From the NCBI GenBank assembly GCA_041742075.1, contig JBGSJJ010000013.1, positions 1,801 through 65,800 of the forward strand: a DNA stretch of 64,000 nt, given 5' to 3'. The notes beneath the pieces are model-generated. The model ran no database searches. It was given only the letters and a program-made list of their open reading frames with translations, and was not told the DNA's origin. Both the position numbers and the translations under genes were made by a program. Origin of the DNA: Minisyncoccia bacterium. Its GTDB lineage: Bacteria > Patescibacteriota > Minisyncoccia > Phycocordibacterales > UBA918. This document shows, in pieces, positions 22,516-53,355 of the stretch (position 1 is its first letter; each line of letters begins with the position of its first letter).

Positions 22516-22909
22516 GGGGATGCTAGGCATCGACGGTTAGCCCCGGAAGTAGTGCGCAATGTCGAAAGTGAATGTGAATTCGTTAAAATACATTCAACAC
22601 TTACGTGCAAAGAATAGCGTAAAAAGCCCATACTTTTCGAAGTTGAGCTTCGCCCCTGCTGTAGCGTAAATAACGCTCGCAGTCAGCGACATCACTTCTC
22701 CTGACGTCTGATACGGAGGAGTTGGTGTAATAAACATCGGACTCTTAGCTACCGCTCCGCAGTAGTGATAGCTAGAATTTCTTACTGCTCGACAGTCTGG
22801 ACTTTGGTTTTCTTTTAATCCAGGCTGTTTAAACCCAAAGGAGGACTATACATTGTAGACCCACCGCTTTCACCTAATTCGGACGGGAGTTCAATTCTCC
22901 CCATCTCCA
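22516..22909 (+). ncRNA. ssrA: tmRNA (ssrA)
   Basis: 5-prime GGGGATGCTAGGCATCGACGG. 3-prime tRNA-like end GGGAG-TTCAATT-CTCCC then CATCTCC-A, which pairs with the 5-prime GGGGATG. Internal tag frame GCA AAG AAT ... GCG TAA gives AKNSVKSPYFSKLSFAPAVA. Lies about 1.1 kb downstream of smpB. Confidence 0.75.
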
Positions 22910-23121
22910 CGAGTACAAAAAACAGCTCACACATTTTTGTGTGGGCATTTTTTGTTCGTGGAGATGGGAGCAAGCAAACTACTTTGCTTGCGTGAGAATT
23001 GAACTAAGCATAGCGATGTGACTTTGTCACGAGTGAGCTCGGGGAGGAAGTTCTTAGTATTTTAAGAGTGGTACGAATTAAAATACTTAGAAACTTGACC
23101 CTTCATTCTCCCCATCTCCAC
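22895..23121. repeat. tmRNA 3-prime-end repeats: direct copy ttc(a)attctccccatctccac at 23101-23121 and inverted copy cgtggagatgggag at 22957-22970
   Basis: 16 of 16 nt are identical between 22895-22910 and 23106-23121. The pattern resembles an att core duplication left by an element integrated at ssrA. Confidence 0.6.
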
Positions 23122-23207
23122 CGACATATAAGTATGTAGAAATACATGGAACAACATAGAAGTTTACTCGTATGGGTAAGCTTTTTTGTTTTGGTATACT
23201 TAATTTA

Positions 23208-23513
23208 ATGCAAATTATTCTCCTTGATTCTGTTGAAACATTTTTTGGGTCACTAAACGCAAAAGAAATTGCCAAAATAATTCGAACAATTGAATTACTA
23301 GAAGAATTTGGTAATGATTTAGGAATGCCACACAGCAGACACATGTCTGATGGTCTACTGGAACTACGGATACGCGGAACTAGAGAAATTAGAATATTCT
23401 ACTGCTTCCATAAGAAACAGGCTGTTTTACTACATGCCTGTATCAAGAAAACCCAAAAGACACTCGATAAAGAACTAGGCAGAGCGCGAGACGCAAAAGC
23501 ACACTTGCAATAA
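23208..23513 (+). CDS. type II toxin, RelE/ParE superfamily (HigB / Gp49-like addiction-module killer protein)
   Basis: LELRIRGTREIRIFYCFHKKQAVLLHACIKKTQKT matches the Gp49/HigB-like toxin pattern. It precedes an XRE HTH gene. Confidence 0.55.
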   Translation: MQIILLDSVETFFGSLNAKEIAKIIRTIELLEEFGNDLGMPHSRHMSDGLLELRIRGTREIRIFYCFHKKQAVLLHACIKKTQKTLDKELGRARDAKAHLQ

Positions 23514-23539
23514 TATAACTTATAAGTTATATTTACTTT

Positions 23540-23815
23540 ATGAGTACTACATTCAAACAATTTAAAACCAAAACTCTCAAGGACCCAGTCGTCAAAACTG
23601 AGTACGAAGCGCTTGGAGCAGAGTATGGGGTAGTAAAAACTATTATCAAAGAACGTGTTAAGCGTGGCTGGTCTCAGACAGAACTGGCAGAAGCCATCGG
23701 TAGCCGCCAGCCAGTTATTTCTCGCCTGGAACGTGGTGACGGCAATCCTTCCCTGCAAACCCTCAGTCGCATTGCCAAGGCACTAGATTTATCCCTCAAG
23801 GTATCGATGCGGTAA
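23540..23815 (+). CDS. XRE-family helix-turn-helix protein (HigA-like antitoxin)
   Basis: WSQTELAEAIGSRQPVISRLERGDGNPSLQTLSRIAKAL is a canonical HTH_XRE. Confidence 0.7.
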   Translation: MSTTFKQFKTKTLKDPVVKTEYEALGAEYGVVKTIIKERVKRGWSQTELAEAIGSRQPVISRLERGDGNPSLQTLSRIAKALDLSLKVSMR

Positions 23816-23984
23816 TCACCAAAAATCAACAATCTTCAAAAATTCACACACTCCATTTCAATCAAAGGGGTTTTTCACCACAAGAGCATTTCCAAAATTA
23901 TGTTCGAGTGAACTCTCACTAATTTCTAGGTCACTTGAGTTAAAGTGCTCTACTTATATAAAACTCATCAAGACTCAAAAATCT

Positions 23985-24539
23985 CTACTCTAAGACTCTT
24001 TCAGTGAATTCCCACGGTTTCTCATTACTACTTGAAATTAAATAGGTGCAGTCTTCTCCTGCAAGATTGCAAGCATCAACTTTGAGCAAACTGTCTTCAG
24101 TCCATTCTACAACTCGGCCCCAGGTACGGTTATGGAGTATACCCCTGCCTGCTTCATATACCTCAACAAATGAATCCTCGAACTTACTTCCTTGCAAGGC
24201 AACGAACTTTTTGTCGGGAGAAATATATCCTTCGTGATACGAAACAACTTCAAAGTAATTCTCTATCGTTGAAGGGTTGTCTGATTCGGCGATTCTGACC
24301 CGGTAGTTTGTACTCAGTACTACGTATACACCTAGGTCACTTTCGCCATCCCCAATTTCTACACTATCTAGAGTAACCACTTCTTCACTCGGTACCGGTG
24401 TTTCATGATTGTCTGAATTGGTTTTGCCTTCTTCTGAAGTAATGGCTAGTTTACTTACTTCCTTATCCCTATAACTTATGTAGACAAGCAAAGCTGTGAG
24501 GGTTAAAACTACCACTGAGAGAGTGATGATTTTATTCAT
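23985..24539 (-). CDS. secreted hypothetical protein
   Basis: N-terminal signal/anchor, 184 aa, no recognisable domain. Confidence 0.4.
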   Translation of the reverse strand: MNKIITLSVVVLTLTALLVYISYRDKEVSKLAITSEEGKTNSDNHETPVPSEEVVTLDSVEIGDGESDLGVYVVLSTNYRVRIAESDNPSTIENYFEVVSYHEGYISPDKKFVALQGSKFEDSFVEVYEAGRGILHNRTWGRVVEWTEDSLLKVDACNLAGEDCTYLISSSNEKPWEFTERVLE

Positions 24540-24575
24540 CTTTTCAGCCTACCACACCTGAAACAGAAGCACATA

Positions 24576-24604
24576 ATAAAAACCGCCCTTAAGGCGGTTT
24601 TTAT
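24576..24604. terminator. bidirectional terminator hairpin (aaaaaccgcc / ggcggttttt)
   Basis: 10-bp stem with A/T runs on both sides. Confidence 0.7.
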
Positions 24605-24620
24605 TATGTGCATTTGCAGT

Positions 24621-25475
24621 TTAGTTTGTCAGAGCGGGGGTTGTCGTCGCCATTATCTCTGAGACAGTCGTTGTGCTAACTTCTATAATCATCGCATCAG
24701 CTCCCTCTGGTTCAGGTTTCACTTCGGCTGGCTTTTCAACTTCTGCACCAAGAATTCGCTCAAGCTCAATATCTTGTAGTGCATTTGCGATAGTGTCAAT
24801 TGCTTTAGCGATATCGCCTTCAGCGATACTTTCGCTAGCGCGAGTGAGATTCTTCTTCGTGTCATCGCGAAGCGTATCACTCATTTCGTTACCCTCTGCA
24901 TGAACAAGGACCTGTCCAAGGAAGTCACTAAGGAAAGCTTTTACTTCATCGTTAGTGGCATGCACAATGAACTGATCTATTCGGTTTGAGAAAATATTAG
25001 CAACTTCTCGGCGCTTCTCTTGTATAGCGTCAGCAACAATAACCATGTGTTCACTCCGCTCGGCCACCTCTTCTATCGTACGTAACCGTACTTGTAGGTT
25101 GTGGGTCATCCGTAGAGCGTCTGGCCTTGATATACCGACTGTTTCTTCAGCAGCCAGTAGTGCTACGACAGCATCTGAGTGTCCCCGGGTAGTGTCTACG
25201 AGTTTCCAAAGTATTGCTTCATCAACCGCTGAACGTTGACTTAATACTTTGGTTTCTTCAGCTCGTCTCGCTAGTAATGTGAGTTGATATTCACCCTGCG
25301 CAACAGGTGTTTGATAGAACATACCAACCCCCTTTTCAAGGCCGTTTATCTTAAGGGTATAGAGCGGACTACTCACCGAAGCGGTGAAAACAAAGCCGAG
25401 TAGTATGAGAAAAACTGCTAACGCAGATAGTGCCACAACGAGTGATTTATTTGATTTTATATTGTCTAAGTTCAT
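24621..25475 (-). CDS. membrane-anchored hypothetical protein
   Basis: TM anchor after MNLDNIKSNK, then a largely helical extracytoplasmic region. Confidence 0.4.
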   Translation of the reverse strand: MNLDNIKSNKSLVVALSALAVFLILLGFVFTASVSSPLYTLKINGLEKGVGMFYQTPVAQGEYQLTLLARRAEETKVLSQRSAVDEAILWKLVDTTRGHSDAVVALLAAEETVGISRPDALRMTHNLQVRLRTIEEVAERSEHMVIVADAIQEKRREVANIFSNRIDQFIVHATNDEVKAFLSDFLGQVLVHAEGNEMSDTLRDDTKKNLTRASESIAEGDIAKAIDTIANALQDIELERILGAEVEKPAEVKPEPEGADAMIIEVSTTTVSEIMATTTPALTN

Positions 25476-25517
25476 TATTCTATTGTACCTGAATACGCGA
25501 CAGACTGATAGGCTACA

Positions 25518-25555
25518 CAAAATGGGCGCCAAACTGCGTTTTGGCGCCCATTTTC
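25518..25555. terminator. long terminator hairpin (aaaatgggcgccaaa / tttggcgcccatttt)
   Basis: 15-bp perfect stem. Confidence 0.7.
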
Positions 25556-25569
25556 TCTCTACCTACAGC

Positions 25570-25713
25570 TTAGTTTTTGGTCGCAACCAAAGAAAAGCTC
25601 AGGGCAATCATGTCGTCAATAACGTTGTCTGCTAGATTTTTGAGAATACTTGAAATAATCAGTTTAGAAGATGTACGAAAAAACCGCGAAGGCAAGGCCT
25701 TCGCGGTAGTTGT
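25570..25713 (-). pseudogene. orphan 3-prime fragment of a yceI-like gene (no start codon)
   Basis: The minus frame reads ...ILKNLADNVIDDMIALSFSLVATKN*. This matches the C-terminus of the intact YceI-like gene at 30319-31041 (DDLADNVIDDMIALSFVLVAEKN*). It has no Met and is bounded upstream by TGA. Confidence 0.6.
25605..25635. repeat. 31-bp direct repeat, left copy (caatcatgtcgtcaataacgttgtctgctag)
   Basis: Identical to 30354-30384. Confidence 0.9.
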
Positions 25714-25734
25714 TCAAAGAACAGATATTCACCG

Positions 25735-27141
25735 TCATGCTGCGAGTGCGCATGAGGTACCACGAGCACACTTCTCGGCAGCAGTCTTGCCATAGGATGT
25801 CAACACGACCGGCAGACCGAGCAGTCCACCGAGTCGATCAGCATAGGCTTCACCCCGCTCAGAGACTGGAGTGTAACTTGCTTCAGCCTTCCGTAAGACC
25901 TCACCGAGTAAGAGCTGGTGCGGCTTGTTCTCAGCGTCGAACTTCGGCCGGAGCGCAGTTACGTAGTCAACGTCGGAGCGCGAGCGTGGCTCGATGATAA
26001 GTGCGGCCACTTCAGTGTTGGTGAGTGCACCGGCCGGTACTCGATAACGAGTTGCAAGCATCGGTGACGGCACCGTATCGAGACGATCAAGGTGTGTGAC
26101 CACAAGCGAGTCAACTCCTTCACTCGCCATAAGCGCATAGCGCGTAAGTGGAACATCGAACCAGCCGACCCGAAACCCTTCCTGCCACGTGCTGTAGCGA
26201 TTGTGCTCATCAGGAAGCTGTGTCGTCAGTGACATGTCTTCGGTTGGAAATGGTCCGGCGCCGTGACGAGTGCTGTATGCGCGCACCACGCCGTAGCGAG
26301 AAACCGGCTTGTCATAGCCGATATCCGCGAGGAGCGTGTTGGCATTCTTCGCCGTCGTCGTGCTCCAGGTGGTGTACGGATGGAAGCCGTGCCGCTCATC
26401 AAGCAGCACCCCTTGTGCCCCTTCGAAGATGAGTGGCTTGGTTTCGGCCAGCCGCTTGAGTGTCCGCACGGAAGCGATAGTGAGACGCTTGCCGATTTCG
26501 TAGAGAGCGGAAGCAATCAGCTCCGGCGCCCGGTAGTCGTAGAGGTGCTGTAATTCCTCACCGAGGTATCCGTACGATCTGAGCTCGTTGAAGTACGGCG
26601 AGAACTCGACATACTTCAGTTCCTGAAGAGTCTTGAGACGCACGAGAAGCGTCGAGCGCGAGCGTAGATCAGCAACCCGAATCGTGAGCTCGGGATGGGC
26701 GATGGAGTCCGACATCGTTTCGCCGATACCCATGCCACAGCTACCGTGACGACCATGACCCCGGAGCATTTCCCGCAGACGATTGCCGGCTTTCTGGAAC
26801 GGCGTCACGACGATCGCGTCGCCGTCAATCGCGATTCGAGCGAACGGTTCCGTGACACCGAGCTGCTCGAGACGTCGTGCCTCCTCCTTGAGGGCGAACG
26901 GGTCAACAAGCATGAAACGTGAGAGGAACGTCCGCACACCCAAAACGAAGGTGCCGCTCCCAAACTGGGAGAAGGTGTGGTGACGGCCGGTTGCAGTGTG
27001 CACGTTGTGCGCGGCCTGTGCACCGCCGTTGTAACGAACAACGACCGCGCCTTCCATTTGGCGAGCTAGATAGTCAACAGTCGTACCCTTGCCCGCGTCG
27101 CCAAACCCGAGGTCGGTCACGATAGTAGCTCTTTGTTCCAT
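25735..27141 (-). CDS. adenylosuccinate synthetase (PurA) family protein
   Basis: P-loop [17 protein letters not shown]...[12 protein letters not shown], then [37 protein letters not shown] and [15 protein letters not shown]. These match PurA motifs ([55 protein letters not shown]). RBS AAGGAA. Confidence 0.7.
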   Translation of the reverse strand: [468 protein letters not shown]

Positions 27142-27217
27142 AACGTGATTCCTTGTGTGAGAGAAAAGAAAAGCGGTGGCGCGAAGCGCCACCGCAGAGG
27201 TGTTCGGTGTGTTCAGC

Positions 27218-28231
27218 TCAGAGCCGACTCACACCACCTGAGGCACGTCGCTTCGCGAGTGTGCCGCCAGTGCGAGCAGCTGTTCCGGCTGCCACCGACT
27301 TGTTGCCGATAGGCACGAGCGCGTTCTTGACGGCGCTCGCGGCTGCACCAGAGAGTCCGATGTCAGCCACGACACGGTCGGCGTCGTACGAGCTCTCGAG
27401 CATGTGGATGATGCCAGCGATGATCTCGCAGACCAGGCTCGAGTCCTCGACCATGACGAGTCGCTCTCCGAGGAGCTGCCGCCAGCGGTCGTGGATGTCC
27501 ATGCGATCAGGATAGCTGCCATCGAGTGCGAACAGGTGGAAGATGTTCCACTGCTCGCTCGCCCGAGACAGAAGCGACTCGACCGTTTCGTCACCCTCGA
27601 CGTCGACGCCGAAGATCTTCTGCACGTCGGCTCCCGTAACGGTCGGCCACGGCATCTCGTCGCCCATCGTGAAGAGGTAGCCCTTCTTGCCGCGCTTCTC
27701 GAACGCATCGCTCGCGGTGTGGTTGGCGGCGAAGTAGTAGGCGAGCCCGTAGGACTCCTTCACCTGTCCGCCGCCGCCCTCGAGGATGATGGCGCGCAGC
27801 TGATCGTCGAAGCGGTTGTCCGATTCGAACTGACCGACCTGGAACGGATAGCGGTCGCACGTCGAGTCGCCGACGGCGCCGACCAGCACCTGTGGGTCCG
27901 AGAGACCAGCCTTGTCGATGATCACGTCCATCAAGCTCGTGAGCTTCTCCTGCAAGACGCGCGGGATGCGCCCCATCGAACCAGTGACATCGAACAGCAT
28001 GGCGATCGGAATCGAGTTCGGGTGTTCGTCGCTGTCGCGGCTCTCGCGCACGCCGTAGTGGTAGCGCGCCGGGTCAGGGTTCTTGAAGCCCTTCGGGTCG
28101 AGCGAGGTATGAATGCCGCTCGCCTTGCCGGACCGAACCTTGACCGTATAGTCGAAGTCGTCGATACCACTTGCGCGGCGCGACGTAGCTGCAGCACTGT
28201 AGATGCTGCTATCCCAAGTACCACCACCCAT
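27218..28231 (-). CDS. von Willebrand factor A (vWA) domain protein
   Basis: MIDAS motif IAMLFDVTGSMG (DxSGS). RBS AGGAGG. Confidence 0.65.
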   Translation of the reverse strand: MGGGTWDSSIYSAAATSRRASGIDDFDYTVKVRSGKASGIHTSLDPKGFKNPDPARYHYGVRESRDSDEHPNSIPIAMLFDVTGSMGRIPRVLQEKLTSLMDVIIDKAGLSDPQVLVGAVGDSTCDRYPFQVGQFESDNRFDDQLRAIILEGGGGQVKESYGLAYYFAANHTASDAFEKRGKKGYLFTMGDEMPWPTVTGADVQKIFGVDVEGDETVESLLSRASEQWNIFHLFALDGSYPDRMDIHDRWRQLLGERLVMVEDSSLVCEIIAGIIHMLESSYDADRVVADIGLSGAAASAVKNALVPIGNKSVAAGTAARTGGTLAKRRASGGVSRL

Positions 28232-28264
28232 GATGTCCTCCTTTGGGTTTGGTGTAGTTTCGAT

Positions 28265-29386
28265 TCACGTGTTCGGCATAATAAGTGGCCGATACGTTCG
28301 TCCCCAGTGGCCTCGCACCGCATCAGTGAACTGACGCAGTACAAGTGCCCCATCGTGTGCACGTCGCTTCGGGTCTGCCACGAGGCAGCCCTTCACCACT
28401 TGCACGATGTCACTCGGAACCTGGCTCGGGAATCGATCGCGAGCCACGTCGCCGCCGGTGAGATAGAGAAACGCCTTGCCGGCCATGTAGAGGTCGGTTT
28501 GGTGCGTCGGTACTTCACGGGCGAATACTTCAGGCGGGTACCAGTCTCGGTAGCGGTCGATGACCGTTGTTAACCGAGCCTTCCTGACGTGTGGTTCGAT
28601 GACCGCATGCGCCCAACCCAAGTGGAGGGGCTCATGGGTCTTCGGATGCACCAGCACGTGCTCCGGCACTAGTGCGCCATTGACGACACCGAGCATCGCT
28701 GCCGCCAGAGTCTGACCGAGTACCCGTCGCCAGACCCAGGCGGCTGCCTCTTGTGGCAAGCCATCCTGGTAGGCAGTACGGATATCCTTGAGCGAAACGA
28801 AACCTGGTCGCTCACGGTAGACATTGGCGCGGTAGCGAATGTTGCCCGCTTCAAGCACCAAAAAAGTGTCAAGAAGTTCAGGCAGAAACGGTGCCAAGAC
28901 CGAAGCCTTGCCGGTCGCCCGTGACAGCACCGCCACCTCATGTTCGAGGTATTGGTTCTGGCTCGGCTCAGCCGCTACCTTCACCACAACAGCCGTGCCA
29001 TCTGCAGCGACCCCGCGATAGAGAAGCGAAAAGTCACCCTCTCTAAACGGTGTCGCGGCGCAGGTATAGCTCATCGTCGAGCCAGTGAAGCTGATAGTCG
29101 GTCCAGTTGTAGAACCAGCCGAAGCAAACGGCTCTTCGTACCGACCGGCGGCCAGTGCCGCTTTTGCACGTTCGTGCAGGTCGATGATACGTGTGAGCAC
29201 ATCGCCAGCCAGCGCTTGTTCAGGACCTGCTCGGTCGGGGTGCGAGGTGCGAGCAAGGTAGACGAACTTCTTCTTGAGTTGCCGTTCCTGCTCGCGCTTG
29301 GTACCCAGAGGGAGCGAACCAAAGACGTCACTGTAGCGAGTGGCGCCCTTAAGCTGTGAGTCGAAAGCCGCCAGTGCGCTCTGCAT
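28265..29386 (-). CDS. J-domain (DnaJ-like HPD motif) fused to a protein-kinase-like domain
   Basis: N-terminal LKKKFVYLARTSHPDRAG is a J-domain helix II-III with HPD. Downstream come VVVKVAAEP (VAIK-like) and a GALVPEHVLVHP catalytic-loop-like segment. RBS AAGGAG. Confidence 0.55.
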   Translation of the reverse strand: MQSALAAFDSQLKGATRYSDVFGSLPLGTKREQERQLKKKFVYLARTSHPDRAGPEQALAGDVLTRIIDLHERAKAALAAGRYEEPFASAGSTTGPTISFTGSTMSYTCAATPFREGDFSLLYRGVAADGTAVVVKVAAEPSQNQYLEHEVAVLSRATGKASVLAPFLPELLDTFLVLEAGNIRYRANVYRERPGFVSLKDIRTAYQDGLPQEAAAWVWRRVLGQTLAAAMLGVVNGALVPEHVLVHPKTHEPLHLGWAHAVIEPHVRKARLTTVIDRYRDWYPPEVFAREVPTHQTDLYMAGKAFLYLTGGDVARDRFPSQVPSDIVQVVKGCLVADPKRRAHDGALVLRQFTDAVRGHWGRTYRPLIMPNT

Positions 29387-29516
29387 TGTTTTGTACTCCT
29401 TCTGTCAAAGAACGTGTTGGAGTGGCTGTACCAACTCCTTCCTTTGTGTACTTCTTACACTAAGATATACCTATGCTTAATTAGTCTCAAGTGTACACTA
29501 AGTTATGACACAGATA

Positions 29517-29549
29517 TGTCCTTATTGTCAAATATACAATAAGGACATT
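29517..29549. promoter_or_regulatory. perfect palindrome atgtccttattg-N9-caataaggacat between the NrtR-like gene and the kinase-vWA-PurA operon
   Basis: 12-bp arms overlapping the stop of the NrtR-like gene. No T-run. Candidate operator and/or terminator. Confidence 0.4.
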
Positions 29550-30219
29550 ATGCGATGAGCGGTATCTCAGTTACGGTACTTCCCTTAAAGCGATACAGAG
29601 CTGCTGGTCGATTCTGTACCCCACTTTGCATGTCCCCAGTCTCTTCTAGAATATCGAGTGCGAGTATTTTTTTGCGAAAATTACGCTTATCAAATGTCTC
29701 GGCTCGCACAACTTCGTAGATTGATTGCAGTTCAGTGAGAGTAAATTGTTTTGGTAGTAGTTGTCTAGCGATAGTGGTGTAGAGCAATTTGCCAGCTAGT
29801 CTCGTGTGAGCGCTCGTGAGCATATCGTTATGATCGTACGCAAGTGTACCAACCTTCTTAATTGGCACCCACTTTGCACTGTCATGCGTATACCTTTCAG
29901 CGGTACTAAATGGCACCAGGCCGAGGTACGCAATTGCGACCGAGCGGCTACGCGTATCACGAGTAACGTCGGTAAAGGTGTAAAGTTGCTCAAGGTACAC
30001 ACGCTCAATGTTAACCTTCTCCTTCAAGTGGCGCGCGAGTGCTTGTTCAGCATTTTCTTCTGGTCGCATAACACCCCCGGGGAAACCAGACATTCCTTTG
30101 TAGTGATTGGTGACGGTTTCAACTGGCCGCAGTAGTGTCCATAGCATTCCGTTTCCTACAGCAAACAGCACAGCGTCTACCGCAGCTATCGCAAATCGAA
30201 ATGGTGGACTTTGAGTCAT
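29548..30219 (-). CDS. Nudix-domain transcriptional regulator, NrtR-like (Nudix N-terminal domain plus C-terminal winged helix)
   Basis: Degenerate Nudix box GFPGGVMRPEENAEQALARHLKEKVNI. C-terminal FTLTELQSIYEVVRAETFDKRNFRKKILALDILEETGDMQSGVQNRPAALYRF is typical of the NrtR DNA-binding domain. Confidence 0.55.
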   Translation of the reverse strand: MTQSPPFRFAIAAVDAVLFAVGNGMLWTLLRPVETVTNHYKGMSGFPGGVMRPEENAEQALARHLKEKVNIERVYLEQLYTFTDVTRDTRSRSVAIAYLGLVPFSTAERYTHDSAKWVPIKKVGTLAYDHNDMLTSAHTRLAGKLLYTTIARQLLPKQFTLTELQSIYEVVRAETFDKRNFRKKILALDILEETGDMQSGVQNRPAALYRFKGSTVTEIPLIA

Positions 30220-30318
30220 AGCTTACTTACTGTACAAAATACACTATTATAGACTATCTGTCGAGTACAAAAGGCACCACACAAAGTGTAGTGCCTTTTG
30301 TGTATAGACTTTGAGCGA

Positions 30319-31041
30319 CTAGTTCTTTTCTGCTACCAGCACAAACGACAATGCAATCATGTCGTCAATAACGTTGTCTGCTAGGTCGTCAAAAAACGAA
30401 CCTGAACCAGCGGTAATTCCCCACTTTGTTCGGTCGATTTCAGTGCTTGCTTCTGCTACTAGCTGACCTTCTGCATTCGTGTAGATAGTGGCCGGAAAGG
30501 TAACCTCGTGGGTTTGGTCTTTCATAGTGAGGTCACCCGTGATGTCGTACGCAAACGTAGTTGCGCTATCAGCCCTCTCTGTGACGCTGGTAATTTTAAA
30601 GCCAGCATTTGGGTAGGCTTCGACATTAAACCAACGTTCTCCCTTGAGGTGCTCTTCGAGCTTACCTTCCTGTCCAGGCTTTTTAGCAGTCAATCCCACA
30701 TCGAGTGTATTCATATCAATCACGAACTCACCAGTAGCAGTGTCACCGAGTACTGTAATCGTACCTTCGGTTACACCGAGCGTTCCGTTGTTGGTGTATC
30801 CTTCGAGGAGTGGCTTCTTGCCAGACCAGTTGACCACACTTTCAGTTGCTACAACGGTATATGCGCCGTCAGTAACCACCACTTTTTCAACTTTGGCCAT
30901 TTCTGTCTCATTTGTCGCCATGGTTGTGGTGCTGGTTTCGCCAGTAGCCATTTCTTCAGTCTTCTTGTCTGACCCCATCATGACAAAATACACCCCGCCA
31001 GCAAGTATTAGTAAAGCTCCAATTCCTAAAATAAGTTTCAT
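30319..31041 (-). CDS. YceI-family secreted protein
   Basis: Signal peptide, Thr/Glu-rich linker, and YceI-like beta-barrel region (...WFNVEAYPNAGFKITSV...TMKDQTHEVTF...). Confidence 0.6.
   Translation of the reverse strand: MKLILGIGALLILAGGVYFVMMGSDKKTEEMATGETSTTTMATNETEMAKVEKVVVTDGAYTVVATESVVNWSGKKPLLEGYTNNGTLGVTEGTITVLGDTATGEFVIDMNTLDVGLTAKKPGQEGKLEEHLKGERWFNVEAYPNAGFKITSVTERADSATTFAYDITGDLTMKDQTHEVTFPATIYTNAEGQLVAEASTEIDRTKWGITAGSGSFFDDLADNVIDDMIALSFVLVAEKN
30354..30384. repeat. 31-bp direct repeat, right copy (inside the 3-prime end of the yceI-like gene)
   Basis: Identical to 25605-25635. Confidence 0.9.
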
Positions 31042-50025: not shown

Positions 50026-50634
50026 TTAGACGGTAGGCACATCAAAATGTACGTCGTACATAATTCGTTCTTGAGCGGTCACGTATTCCATGATTTCATT
50101 TTCAGTAAACCAAATTGTGGTTTCTCGCTCCGCTTCCTCTGGTGATTCTGAACAGTGGATGAGATTTCGAACTGCTCGATCTTCGTAGGCAGAATGACCA
50201 TACGAGTCAATGGTGAAGTCACCACGAATCGTACCGACGTCTGACGTTGCCGGCTCAGTGGTACCAACCAGCTTTGTTACCACTGCCACTGATTGGTTGC
50301 CTTCAAGTACCATCATCACGACGGGAGCAGCCGTCATGTAGTGAACGATGGTTCGGATAATATCCTTTCCGTACTCAATTGGTTCCTTAGTAATCGTTGT
50401 TCCTTGTGCTTTTAAGTCTTCAACAATCCGCGTACCTTTTTTTAAAAACCAGGCATCATCTTTGTTGTAGTGCTTGAGGAGTTGCGCTTCAGTCGGTACT
50501 GCCATTTTCATAGCAACAAACTTCAGGCCAGTTCGTTCAAAACGGCCAATTACTTCACCCATCAGTGACCGTTGGACCGTGTCAGGTTTTAGAATTACAA
50601 ACGTTCGTTCTTGATGTGGTTTACGCGATGCCAT
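50026..50634 (-). CDS. ndk: nucleoside diphosphate kinase (long form)
   Basis: ERTFVILKPDTVQRSLMGEVIGRFERTGLKFVAMK matches the Ndk N-terminus. Confidence 0.7.
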   Translation of the reverse strand: MASRKPHQERTFVILKPDTVQRSLMGEVIGRFERTGLKFVAMKMAVPTEAQLLKHYNKDDAWFLKKGTRIVEDLKAQGTTITKEPIEYGKDIIRTIVHYMTAAPVVMMVLEGNQSVAVVTKLVGTTEPATSDVGTIRGDFTIDSYGHSAYEDRAVRNLIHCSESPEEAERETTIWFTENEIMEYVTAQERIMYDVHFDVPTV

Positions 50635-50717
50635 AACAAAATTTAGATTAAAAATATGCTCGCAGTATACAGTAGAATTGATTTTTTTCAATCTTTTATC
50701 TGAGGCTCAGAGTAGTG

Positions 50718-51485
50718 TTAGACAAGGGTAAGAATTTCCGGGCCGTCATCCGTTATCAAAACTGTATGCTCCATATGGGCTGAGAGTGAGCCGTCCTTAG
50801 TAACCGCAGTATAGCCGTCTTCGAGCACTTCAACGTCTATTCCGCCAAGTGTGATCATTGGTTCAATCGCGAGCACCATACCTGCCTCAAGTTTTGGACT
50901 CGGTCCCTTCATAACAAAGTTAGGTACAATCGGCTCTTCATGCAGTGAGTAACCAACACCGTGCCCACAAAAAGTTTCGATGATACCAAACTTTTTTCCG
51001 ACCGCCTTTTCGATAGCTGCACCAATGTCGCGTACATGAGCGCCCGGCTTGGCAGCGTCAATTCCAGCGCTCAGTGCACGCTTGGTGACGTCTATCAGTG
51101 CTTGCACTTCTTTGCTTACTCTACCCACTCCTACGGTTCGAGCTGAATCAAGCACAAAACCTTGGTACCCAATCACTAAGTCAATTGAAACTACATCGCC
51201 ATCTTCAAAAGTTTGCGGATGCTCGTTCGGGATACCGTGTACCACCACGTCGTTAATAGACACACAGGTGGCTGCCGGATAAGGCCGTGGTGCAAAGCCG
51301 GCGTGATAGCCAAGAATCATAGGCTCAACACCATACTCTTCAATCAGTTCCATCGCTCGGTCATCTATATCGAGCGTTGTGTTCCCAGCAACAGCAAGTT
51401 TCTCCAAGTCATTTAAAATAGTAGCGAGAATTTTCCCTCCCGCCCGCATGATTTCAATTTCTTCAGCTGTTTTTATAGCAATCAT
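50718..51485 (-). CDS. map: methionine aminopeptidase type I
   Basis: IKTAEEIEIMRAGGKILA..., metal-binding D/D/H/E/E pattern. Follows adk as in spc-adk-map clusters. Confidence 0.85.
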   Translation of the reverse strand: MIAIKTAEEIEIMRAGGKILATILNDLEKLAVAGNTTLDIDDRAMELIEEYGVEPMILGYHAGFAPRPYPAATCVSINDVVVHGIPNEHPQTFEDGDVVSIDLVIGYQGFVLDSARTVGVGRVSKEVQALIDVTKRALSAGIDAAKPGAHVRDIGAAIEKAVGKKFGIIETFCGHGVGYSLHEEPIVPNFVMKGPSPKLEAGMVLAIEPMITLGGIDVEVLEDGYTAVTKDGSLSAHMEHTVLITDDGPEILTLV

Positions 51486-52081
51486 TGAGGCAAGTTAAGT
51501 GCCGAGACAATCTGAGCATGCACTCCATCAATAGTATCAAGCCCGTCGATGTCATGCACGGTTGTGTTCGGCCGGTTACGATAGTACGCAAGCACCGGGA
51601 GTGTTTCTTCACGATACCACTTCAAACGAGCCTCAATTGAGTCAGGGGTGTCGTCTGTTCTGGCCCGTGAAGCCATTCGAGCACGAACTACTTCTTCTGG
51701 TGTCTCAAGGTTTATGATAGTGACTATATCTCTATTGTAAAAAGTTAGGGCACTTTCAAGCACACGAGCTTCATCAACCACTCGCGGAAAACCATCAATC
51801 AGTAAGTGGCGTTTCTCGCTTAGGTGCTCGCGCATCGCGTCTCCCCAGAGTGCTACAGAAAGGAACAGTGGTTGCAGAATACCGCTATTTAGCGTCTCAG
51901 CCACATGCTCTTCTGTGTAGCCCTCACCCTTTGCGGCGAGCGCCCGGAAGCGACGACCAGTCTGAATGTCGACTACCCGGTTCGTGGGATCGAGTGCCGA
52001 CAAGACTGCATCGAGCTTATCAATCTGAGTTCCTTTACCACTTCCCTGCGGTCCGATGAAAATAATAGTGAATGGTTGCAT
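51482..52081 (-). CDS. adk: adenylate kinase
   Basis: P-loop GPQGSGKGTQ, LIDGFPR NMP-binding motif, LID arginines. Confidence 0.75.
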   Translation of the reverse strand: MQPFTIIFIGPQGSGKGTQIDKLDAVLSALDPTNRVVDIQTGRRFRALAAKGEGYTEEHVAETLNSGILQPLFLSVALWGDAMREHLSEKRHLLIDGFPRVVDEARVLESALTFYNRDIVTIINLETPEEVVRARMASRARTDDTPDSIEARLKWYREETLPVLAYYRNRPNTTVHDIDGLDTIDGVHAQIVSALNLPQ

Positions 52082-52084
52082 GAT

Positions 52085-52666
52085 CTAAGTAGCTAGGTAG
52101 TTAAAAATTTGTTGTTGGACGATATTTGGAGCTTGTTCACCATCTATTTCTATCAAGGTTCCTTTCGTTCTAAAGTATTCTATCGAGTGAGCAGTATAGG
52201 TATGGTATTCCTCTAGTCGCTTTTCCACTGACTTTTCTGAATCAACGATATCTCTTGAGCGCGCCGCGCTTCGCTTCCGTACTTCCTCATCTGATATGGC
52301 CAGATGGAAAACAACGTACTGACGGTCAACCCATTCGTGAATTTCATGAAATAACTCTGCTTCGTTGGGCTTTTTTGCAACAGCTTCAAAGACGACACGC
52401 TCATGTTCAAACTGACTCACGAGGGCGTGCGTCATCCAGTACGAGGCTATCCACTCGGGCATTAAATACCCTCCTTCATACATCTCCTTCATCTTCAAAC
52501 CAAACGTGGTTGGCAACGTAGCGCTTTCGCGCACCTTATTTCCATTAGAATACAACGAGCCTCCGAAGTGCTCTAAGATGGCGTGAGCCTGAGTACCTTT
52601 ACCTGAGGCTATCTTGCCCATGAGCACGATACTTTGATATTTTGTTTTGTATTCCATACTTTGCAT
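52085..52666 (-). CDS. adenylate-kinase-family NMP kinase (second, divergent paralog)
   Basis: P-loop GKIASGKGTQ, C-terminal RLEEY...Y pattern. Directly upstream of adk. Confidence 0.55.
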   Translation of the reverse strand: MQSMEYKTKYQSIVLMGKIASGKGTQAHAILEHFGGSLYSNGNKVRESATLPTTFGLKMKEMYEGGYLMPEWIASYWMTHALVSQFEHERVVFEAVAKKPNEAELFHEIHEWVDRQYVVFHLAISDEEVRKRSAARSRDIVDSEKSVEKRLEEYHTYTAHSIEYFRTKGTLIEIDGEQAPNIVQQQIFNYLAT

Positions 52667-52734
52667 AGAGTACCAATTTTTTCAAGTTCTGCAATCTAAG
52701 GCTCACGCTAAAGATGTGGTATGCTGAAAACGCA

Positions 52735-53355
52735 ATGAAGAAAAAACACATCATTACTATTTCCGGGAAACCCGGCAGTGGCAAGTCATCTACTGCAGAC
52801 AAGGTAGCCGAACTCCTTGGCTACACGCGCTACTCCTCAGGTGACTTTGTCCGGACGATTATACGAAAACGAGGTATTTCGCTCGCCGAGTTCAATAAAA
52901 AAGCGAGTACCGACCATACGATTGATGAAGAAATTGACGAAGAACTTCGAAAACTGCGTGACCAAAAAGAAATCATCATCGACTCACGCCTCGGATTCTA
53001 CTGGATACCCGAATCGTTTAAGGTCTATCTTGACCTCGACATGGACGTCGCCACCGCGCGTATCTACAAAGACACGGTCTCAAACGCTAGCCGAAGTAGC
53101 ACTGAATCTGGTGCCACTATTGGTGAAGTGCAGGCGATGGTCCAGGAACGTCTTAAAAACGAACAGGAGCGCTTCCAGTCGCTCTATGGGGTGAATCCAT
53201 ATAGTCGTCGGCATTTTGACCTCATCATCAACACCTCCCGCCATAGCCCACAAACCGTTGCGCTTACCGTCTACGACACCTATCGCAGATGGCTAGAGTC
53301 AGAAACCTGGAAGCAAGAAATCAGTGAAATTCCACTTGGTTTTTCCCTGCAGTAG
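52735..53355 (+). CDS. cmk: cytidylate kinase
   Basis: ITISGKPGSGKSSTA P-loop and SGDFVRTIIRKRG. Confidence 0.7.
   Translation: MKKKHIITISGKPGSGKSSTADKVAELLGYTRYSSGDFVRTIIRKRGISLAEFNKKASTDHTIDEEIDEELRKLRDQKEIIIDSRLGFYWIPESFKVYLDLDMDVATARIYKDTVSNASRSSTESGATIGEVQAMVQERLKNEQERFQSLYGVNPYSRRHFDLIINTSRHSPQTVALTVYDTYRRWLESETWKQEISEIPLGFSLQ

Follow-up and report, generated by a model that had tools for sequence, protein, structure and literature searches.

Phage 21 and e14 integrate at the icd gene of Escherichia coli and supply it with a surrogate 3' end. Prophages of this icd type leave two copies of the 3' end of the target gene, with a core that is perfectly identical and tails that have diverged in nucleotides but specify nearly identical amino acids. 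The gene itself stays intact, and its original end comes to lie beyond the insert. The same anatomy is displayed at a yceI gene in the DNA described here, a window of 64,000 nucleotides (the whole stretch that was analysed, positions 1,801 to 65,800 of contig JBGSJJ010000013.1, assembly GCA_041742075.1) from a Minisyncoccia bacterium of the Candidate Phyla Radiation (CPR). Two copies of a perfect 32-bp direct repeat, called the core in this text, bracket about 4.7 kb with four genes. These encode an NrtR-like regulator with Nudix and winged-helix domains, a protein with a J-domain and a degenerate protein-kinase fold (K), a protein with a vWA fold (V) and a divergent adenylosuccinate-synthetase-like enzyme (P). 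The differences from the icd-type prophages are also clear. The insert measures only 4.7 kb, it carries four cargo genes and no mobility gene that could be found, and the same cargo lies at the same locus in relatives without any repeats.

Campbell-type, or homology-facilitated, integration in naturally transformable bacteria provides a second comparison. It likewise involves no element-encoded enzyme and leaves the shared segment behind as direct repeats. At 32 bp, the core is close to the shortest length used by RecA-type recombination, and CPR bacteria are thought to rely on DNA uptake. The case in the window differs in that it would need a circular intermediate whose homology starts abruptly at the core. 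The class of event is known, and the window adds a new CPR instance of it. More unusual is the cargo, an uncharacterised K-V-P and Nudix cassette.

The cargo itself also has described counterparts. The same three genes in the same order are found in cluster C mycobacteriophages, but the phage copies come without the NrtR-like gene. The regulator recalls the operons for the salvage of nicotinamide adenine dinucleotide and nucleotides that are controlled by NrtR (Rodionov et al. 2008, as cited in PMC9503650). Common to both are a regulator of Nudix and winged helix-turn-helix domains encoded upstream and paired palindromic boxes in the intergenic region, and a phosphoribosyl pyrophosphate (PRPP) synthetase gene is adjacent in two of the comparison loci (L165 and L171). 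Genes for a J-domain pseudokinase, a vWA protein and an adenylosuccinate-synthetase-like enzyme are not known members of the NrtR regulon.

The repeat and the two ends of yceI

The window is ordinary chromosome of a CPR bacterium that resembles Paceibacteria/Kaiserbacteria, encoding SecY, ribosomal proteins, IF3, FtsH, RecG, ClpP and transfer-messenger RNA (tmRNA). Both copies of the repeat are spanned by the single 80-kb contig that is the source of the window, and the bracketed genes as well as both yceI ends lie on the minus strand (Table 1). An earlier reading of this DNA, made from its letters without database searches (the sequence-only reading), had reported a 31-mer at 25605-25635 and 30354-30384. 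Two exact copies are indeed present, but the length of the repeat is 32 bp, not 31. No third copy of the 31-mer occurs in the window at up to three mismatches, and the core is absent from the 235 fetched comparison loci that were searched for it (loci carry labels from L001 to L236) and from the viral contigs of IMG/VR. A dispersed repeat family, named in the sequence-only reading as a finding that would speak against it, is ruled out by these counts. A chance or low-complexity repeat is ruled out as well, since two matches of the 31-mer were obtained in 0 of 100 dinucleotide-preserving shuffles.

The sequence-only reading had further assigned the right copy to the last residues of an intact YceI-like protein and the left copy to a start-less, diverged version of the same C-terminus, and both assignments stand. 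The intact protein ends in LADNVIDDMIALSFVLVAEKN before its stop codon, matches the Pfam YceI family, and is 51-71% identical in amino acids to YceI proteins from metagenome-assembled genomes of Paceibacteria and Kaiserbacteria. The orphan fragment ends in LADNVIDDMIALSFSLVATKN before its own stop codon, and nothing that resembles yceI is found 5' of its core. The frame upstream of the left core (SSKLIISSILKN) has no likeness to YceI, with the possible exception of one Asn codon, and the homology ends abruptly at the upstream edge of the core.

Downstream, ungapped extension of the core gives a 65-nt pair of 77% identity (25571-25635 against 30320-30384) that reaches both stop codons. All 15 mismatches of this pair fall in the 34-nt tail, which would have a probability of 9e-6 if they were randomly spread. 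The two tails, A at the intact gene and B at the orphan, agree at hardly any synonymous site and even draw their serine codons from different families, and their peptides are near-identical. Each tail is followed by a terminator-like hairpin of its own (I20 and I18, respectively), and both are therefore authentic gene ends. In relatives, yceI specifies the same LADNVIDDMI peptide with a sequence that differs from the core of the window at about 4-7 of 31 nucleotides (by-eye count). At the nucleotide level, the identity of the core is therefore a signature of recombination and not of protein conservation. A perfect core next to saturated tails requires crossover or conversion between two long-diverged yceI alleles. 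The insertion footprint with a replacement 3' end that had been proposed is thus borne out as a true recombination junction, but not as a recognisable mobile element.

The junctions can also be followed in the raw data. In the independent Logan assembly (k = 31) of run SRR28170467, contigs found through the exact V protein and the exact protein of the 24621-25475 gene are identical to window positions 25606-30382 and 23306-25633, and a second run contains these contigs as well. The junctions of spacer J with the core, of the core with tail A, and of the core with tail B are thereby reproduced from raw reads. Spacer J has no match in the fetched loci except the window's own Logan contig. Both Logan contigs break 30 nt into the repeat, which is expected because a 32-bp repeat is a branching node in a k = 31 graph. 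These contigs fit the integrated form and an empty site with a separate circle alike.

Table 1. Features of the region between the gene downstream of the orphan fragment and the intact yceI gene, in window coordinates
Feature	Position	Strand	Description
Core, right copy	30353..30384	-	Inside intact yceI; encodes L-A-D-N-V-I-D-D-M-I-(A)
Core, left copy	25604..25635	-	Part of the orphan yceI 3' fragment
Intact yceI, 240 aa	30319..31041	-	YceI-like lipid/polyisoprenoid-binding family with N-terminal membrane anchor; Pfam YceI E = 2e-29
Tail A and stop	30319-30352	-	Last 34 nt of intact yceI, after the core; encodes ALSFVLVAEKN, then stop
Tail B and stop	25570..25603	-	End of the orphan fragment; encodes (A)LSFSLVATKN, then stop
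Terminator-like hairpin after tail A	30267..30301	-	Inverted repeat I20, 16-nt arms, 94% complementary
Terminator-like hairpin after tail B	25519..25554	-	Inverted repeat I18, 15-nt arms, 100% complementary; separates the orphan from the 24621-25475 gene
Spacer J	25636..25734	-	From the P stop to the left core; P terminator hairpin at 25683-25707, then about 47 nt, AT-rich, without yceI homology
Predicted original downstream neighbour of yceI	24621..25475	-	Gene following the orphan; 33% identical homologue in L002, one gene downstream of yceI
NrtR-like regulator (Nudix and winged helix)	29548..30219	-	Pfam NrtR_WHD 1e-24, AraR_C, NUDIX; GC 47.8%
Operator-like palindromes, gap between regulator and K	29442..29543		GTGTActtctTACAC at 29446-29460; GTGTACAC at about 29490; TTATTGT-N7-ACAATAA at 29522-29542
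K: J-domain and degenerate protein-kinase fold	28265..29386	-	phrog_3043 'kinase' 6e-25; GC 59.7%
V: vWA fold with MIDAS-like DVTGS motif	27218..28231	-	phrog_2971 8e-76; alignment A2; GC 62.9%
GC hairpin and T-run between V and P	27173..27195	-	Strong 10-bp GC-rich hairpin
P: divergent adenylosuccinate-synthetase-like enzyme, 468 aa from ATG 27141	25735..27141	-	Pfam Adenylsucc_synt 2e-65; phrog_1211 9e-79; GC 58.6%

Possible routes to the arrangement

The reading that is tentatively preferred here, with somewhat less than even confidence, is that a single crossover of the Campbell type at the yceI core brought in, or brought back, an exchangeable operon, by an enzyme that is left unspecified. 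A DNA circle or looped intermediate of about 4.75 kb would have contained NrtR-K-V-P and, beside it, a surrogate 3' end for yceI made up of core, tail A and terminator. It would have met a chromosomal yceI in which the 5' part was followed by the core, tail B and the 24621-25475 gene. One reciprocal crossover inside these 32 bp, which belong to the most conserved part of yceI, would then produce a hybrid yceI, composed of the host 5' part, the core and the incoming tail A, followed by the module. After the module would come the displaced original end (core, tail B and terminator) and then the old downstream gene. Because no recombinase was found in the island or among the tested open reading frames (ORFs), the crossover would be attributed either to host homologous recombination on the 32-bp identity or to an integrase acting in trans, and the two are about equally likely. 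The repeat, the diverged tails, the genes, the spread of the module and the lack of a recombinase among the tested ORFs are observed; the circular intermediate, insertion as the direction of the event and the enzyme are inferred. The direct repeats should allow the module to loop out again, leaving an intact yceI with tail B.

The strength of the single crossover is that it is a one-event account that gives the exact observed order with yceI kept intact. Some of the comparative data are also consistent with it. Among the closest yceI loci (L002-L006 and L085), 0 of 6 have the module next to yceI. In L002, whose YceI is 71% identical, yceI is followed by one gene and then by the homologue of the 24621-25475 gene, without the module; in the protein database, the 24621-25475 protein has no match besides itself. 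The sequence-only reading had proposed a search of related genomes for an empty site. L002, the closest relative in which both genes are present, shows them in this order with one additional gene between them, and the relatives that are syntenic with the window carry the module nearby. In a neighbour-joining tree of K, V and P together, the window lies outside the clade formed by L165, L170 and L232 with L083, L084 and L228. By xfp, in contrast, the window is nearer to L165, L170 and L232 (70-73% identity) than L083 is to them (64-65%). This incongruence between K-V-P and xfp is mild, and it fits replacement or insertion from another lineage.

Several observations weigh against a crossover that brought the module to this site. 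L165/166, L170 and L232/233 are syntenic with the window over a long stretch (DUF1295, SET, xfp, ackA and dockerin genes). In these loci, NrtR-K-V-P follows the dockerin gene at a distance of one or two genes, and neither yceI nor repeats are present. The same arrangement without repeats in related genomes is what the sequence-only reading had said would refute it, and these loci, with the module at the same xfp-ackA-dockerin locus, come close to that. The divergence between the window and these relatives is 69-72% identity for V, 55-59% for P and 48-50% for K, against 70-73% for xfp and 46-48% for ackA. The module is approximately in the range of the housekeeping genes, which suggests that it is ancestral at the locus and not newly inserted. 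In L228/L229, a complete yceI starts 113 nt after P, at the position of the orphan, so that the orphan could be left over from an earlier gene order. Around the other copies of the module, of which at least 10 are known, no long or att-like (attachment-site-like) flanking direct repeats were found, and no yceI remnant was found near them, except for the full yceI after P in L228. The search for recombinase domains in the island and in 48 ORFs across the window found none. An exact YceI look-up, scans of genomes and metagenomes, and a search with the 24621-25475 protein revealed no close relative with an empty site; the exact look-up of YceI gave no match, and the best YceI in the scans was 62-65% identical (best-segment figures). 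The host phylogeny behind the incongruence consists of one or two genes. Finally, the crossover leaves unexplained how the circle would have acquired a 5'-truncated yceI end.

The synteny and the arrangement in L228 are explained by the main rival, an account in which the module was never inserted and the repeats are what is left of two yceI genes. The ancestral order would have been dockerin, a variable slot, NrtR-K-V-P, yceI and the 24621-25475 gene. A xenologous yceI (allele A) would have entered the slot upstream of the regulator, the downstream yceI would have lost its promoter and its 5' two-thirds, and a short gene-conversion tract would have homogenised the core. All the adjacencies that are needed can be found in relatives: dockerin-slot-NrtR in L165, L170 and L232, P-yceI in L228/L229, and yceI, one gene and the 24621-25475 homologue in L002. 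The slot between the dockerin and NrtR-like genes is variable and is occupied by SNase, by Transgly_assoc and GFA, or by yceI. The orphan lies about 100 nt after the P stop, like the yceI start in L228, and the AAT (Asn) codon that immediately precedes the left core fits the FFDN consensus of the relatives, where the intact gene has FFDD. Nevertheless, this account is rather unlikely. It takes three independent events (insertion, deletion and conversion) instead of one, and the conversion must start where the diverged alleles share only about 80% identity and stop exactly where the tails begin. In addition, it does not predict the mild incongruence between the K-V-P and xfp trees, which the single crossover would accommodate.

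The explanation offered by the sequence-only reading was a classical site-specific element. In its full form, a tyrosine or serine recombinase would act at an att core in the yceI 3' end, and the integrase would since have been lost or be located elsewhere in the genome. The perfect core, the diverged surrogate end with its own terminator and the other arm without homology are textbook anatomy for such an element, and the repeat is unique. Of the usual marks of integrative elements, flanking direct repeats and a surrogate end that keeps the target gene intact are present, whereas a recombinase next to att and the same element with the same att and target in other genomes were not found. The remark that no integrase is present was correct, and it extends from the island to all 48 ORFs tested across the 64 kb. 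All four island genes are cargo-like, and none is suited to excision, replication or transfer. At least 10 other contexts of the module have no att-like repeats, no adjacent integrase and no yceI target. The region is not filed as an integrase-type island because no recombinase domain was found and the other copies of the module are without att-like repeats. Its description as a decayed or trans-mobilised element remains an assumption, since no integrase was found among the ORFs tested across the window, and the insert is read instead as a clade-wide operon. Taken as a whole, the classical element is unlikely. A transposon or insertion sequence can be ruled out: neither a transposase among the island genes nor an inverted repeat pairing the island ends was found, and a 32-bp duplication with a surrogate tail is unlike a target-site duplication.

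It is very unlikely that an empty-site chromosome (yceI, core, tail B and the 24621-25475 gene) and a free circle of 4,749 bp (spacer J, core, tail A and module) were merely joined by the assembler through the shared 32-mer: in a k = 31 graph, two paths enter the core and two leave it, the Logan contigs stop exactly there, and the two ends of one Logan contig (L082) are identical over 28 nt, as expected of a circle, but the 80-kb contig runs across both copies, a 32-bp repeat can be resolved by assemblers with k above 32 and reads of 100-150 nt, and a four-gene circle without a replication function is unlikely to persist. Even if such threading had occurred, a circle and an att-like core would be real biology.

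The preferred reading, a single crossover at the yceI core, would make this locus a base-resolved example of how cassettes are reshuffled in small CPR genomes without an element-encoded recombinase.

The K-V-P cassette and its distribution

The whole region between the repeats had been described as strongly shifted in guanine-cytosine (GC) content. This applies to K, V and P (25.74-29.39 kb), each far above the 48% of the rest of the window, but not to the regulator, which lies inside the repeats and is host-like in composition (Table 1). Eight other CPR loci (L083, L084, L165, L169, L170, L171, L228 and L232) display the same pattern, with K-V-P from several to about 20 GC points above the surroundings, the regulator near the GC of the host, and V the highest in most. 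Because the same elevation is found in all CPR hosts examined, it is a heritable property of the cassette and not a time-stamp of its arrival. The GC content as evidence of a recent foreign origin is therefore ruled out; the shift may go back to an ancient source of high GC or reflect a compositional constraint. More generally, a GC shift can be inherited with a cassette and need not date an arrival.

The regulator and its operon recur as a module in at least 10 other CPR contexts with differing flanks. The NrtR-like gene stands directly before K-V-P in L084, L165/166, L167-169, L170, L226 and L232-234. In L228, it lies upstream with two genes between, in L171 it is divergent, and in L083 it is absent. 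The module is adjoined by a PRPP synthetase gene in L165 and L171. The closest homologues of V are from CPR/Patescibacteria and are up to 75% identical, and the V family comprises more than 6,500 clusters. A direct transfer from an actinophage or from Actinobacteria is ruled out by the values for V, up to 75% within CPR against about 42-46% for the phage and plasmid proteins. The module is clade-resident in CPR and is exchanged horizontally among CPR lineages, and K-V-P is common to large phages and actinobacterial plasmids.

Outside CPR, the K-V-P order is the same in the cluster C mycobacteriophages (Bixzunavirus), for example in Colt gp251-253, at 27-42% amino acid identity. The Colt products are annotated as 'serine/threonine kinase', 'hypothetical protein' and 'PurA-like adenylosuccinate synthetase'. 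Among the IMG/VR contigs, 53 hold the cassette, and most of these are 100-440 kb long; P is adjacent in 50 of the 53, K is detectable in 35, and an NrtR-like gene is present in 4. In plasmids of Rhodococcus, Tsukamurella and Agrobacterium, a Nudix gene follows P. The literature searched for the K-V-P cassette contained no description of it and reported no function.

The order of the cassette is thus kept from the window (25735-29386) through L001, L173-L225 and L236, that is, across CPR, cluster C mycobacteriophages, more than 50 large phage contigs of IMG/VR and actinobacterial megaplasmids. A Nudix gene accompanies K-V-P across phyla (window 29548-30219; L236 7372-8019; L170 10575-11093). 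The form of this companion varies, being an upstream NrtR-like gene for a Nudix and winged-helix protein in CPR and a plain Nudix hydrolase gene directly after P in Rhodococcus. Its recurrence hints that a ligand of the nucleotide-diphosphate-X type is part of the system. In L226, which holds the closest V homologue (75%), a gene with a T5orf172/MUG113 domain lies at 310-906, directly upstream of the NrtR-like gene, and this gene is possibly nuclease-like or associated with mobile DNA.

The regulator has the domain architecture of NrtR but scores 126.8 bits with the NCBIfam NtrR equivalog model, for which the cut-off is 400. Paired boxes similar to the palindromes between the regulator and K are found in the same intergenic region of L084, L165, L169 and L171. 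To judge from these boxes, K-V-P is likely regulated by the Nudix regulator. Across the K family, the HPD motif of the N-terminal J-domain is invariant, and in the kinase fold the Asp of HRD and the DFG motif are replaced (alignment A1); K is a predicted pseudokinase. Its AlphaFold model has a predicted local distance difference test (pLDDT) score of 91.8, and the top fold match in PDB is the DnaJ-PKA fusion 4wb7, followed by Ser/Thr kinases. The model of V (pLDDT 84) matches integrin I-domain and vWA folds. The hairpin that separates V from P within the operon could act as an internal terminator or attenuator.

P retains the GDAGKG P-loop, the catalytic His and FEGAQG. The canonical GATTGRxRR loop, which serves inosine monophosphate and aspartate, is replaced by xWQxxFR in 10 of 10 aligned members of the family. 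P was rejected as a genuine PurA: it reaches at most 176.8 bits with the NCBIfam PurA models, where the cut-off is 402, all equivalog cut-offs are missed, and the loop is altered. It was also rejected as the PurZ of the 2-aminoadenine pathway, with 47.7 bits for amino_Aden_PurZ against a cut-off of 300. The PADLOC-DB v2 defence models gave no matches for K, V or P, and for the regulator only the generic Nudix model PDC-S07 (2.7e-9); a known anti-phage defence system is ruled out by this lack of matches for K, V and P.

It is possible, although doubtful, that the module is an excisable copy of an undescribed nucleotide-centred system that toggles in and out of CPR chromosomes through the 32-bp yceI repeats and is shared by CPR, jumbo and other large phages and actinobacterial megaplasmids. 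In such a system, K would recruit Hsp70, V would be a vWA adaptor, P would be a ligase with a remodelled loop, and the Nudix protein would be the sensor or regulator. The chemistry would be other than that of PurA; for example, a different amine might be joined to a purine nucleotide. The cargo may be the more valuable lead, as it is conserved, is usually found with a Nudix partner, and has an altered substrate loop in its ligase.

Neighbouring features of the window

Within the region 22516-23131, two further copies of the 17 nt that end the tmRNA gene (22894-22910, ATTCTCCCCATCTCCAC) are present, a direct one at 23105-23121 and an inverted one at 22948-22968. These repeats look like the att-type scar of an ssrA-targeted insertion, of which about 200 bp are left. 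Integration of the island at the tmRNA was considered and ruled out, as the repeat of the tmRNA 3' end, 211 bp downstream, belongs to a separate small scar and does not bound the region between the yceI repeats.

The scar is adjoined by a HigB(Gp49)/HigA-like toxin-antitoxin pair at 23172-23815. The pair is 85-92% identical in amino acids to that of L004 and 70-82% to that of L083, where the neighbouring genes are only 45-70% identical, which suggests a recently exchanged toxin-antitoxin module.

Further along the window, beside the cluster of SecY and ribosomal protein genes, two adjacent adenylate-kinase-like genes and a cytidylate-kinase-like gene are located at 51482-53355. Together with an NDK-domain protein encoded at 50026-50691, they form a dense set of nucleotide kinases.

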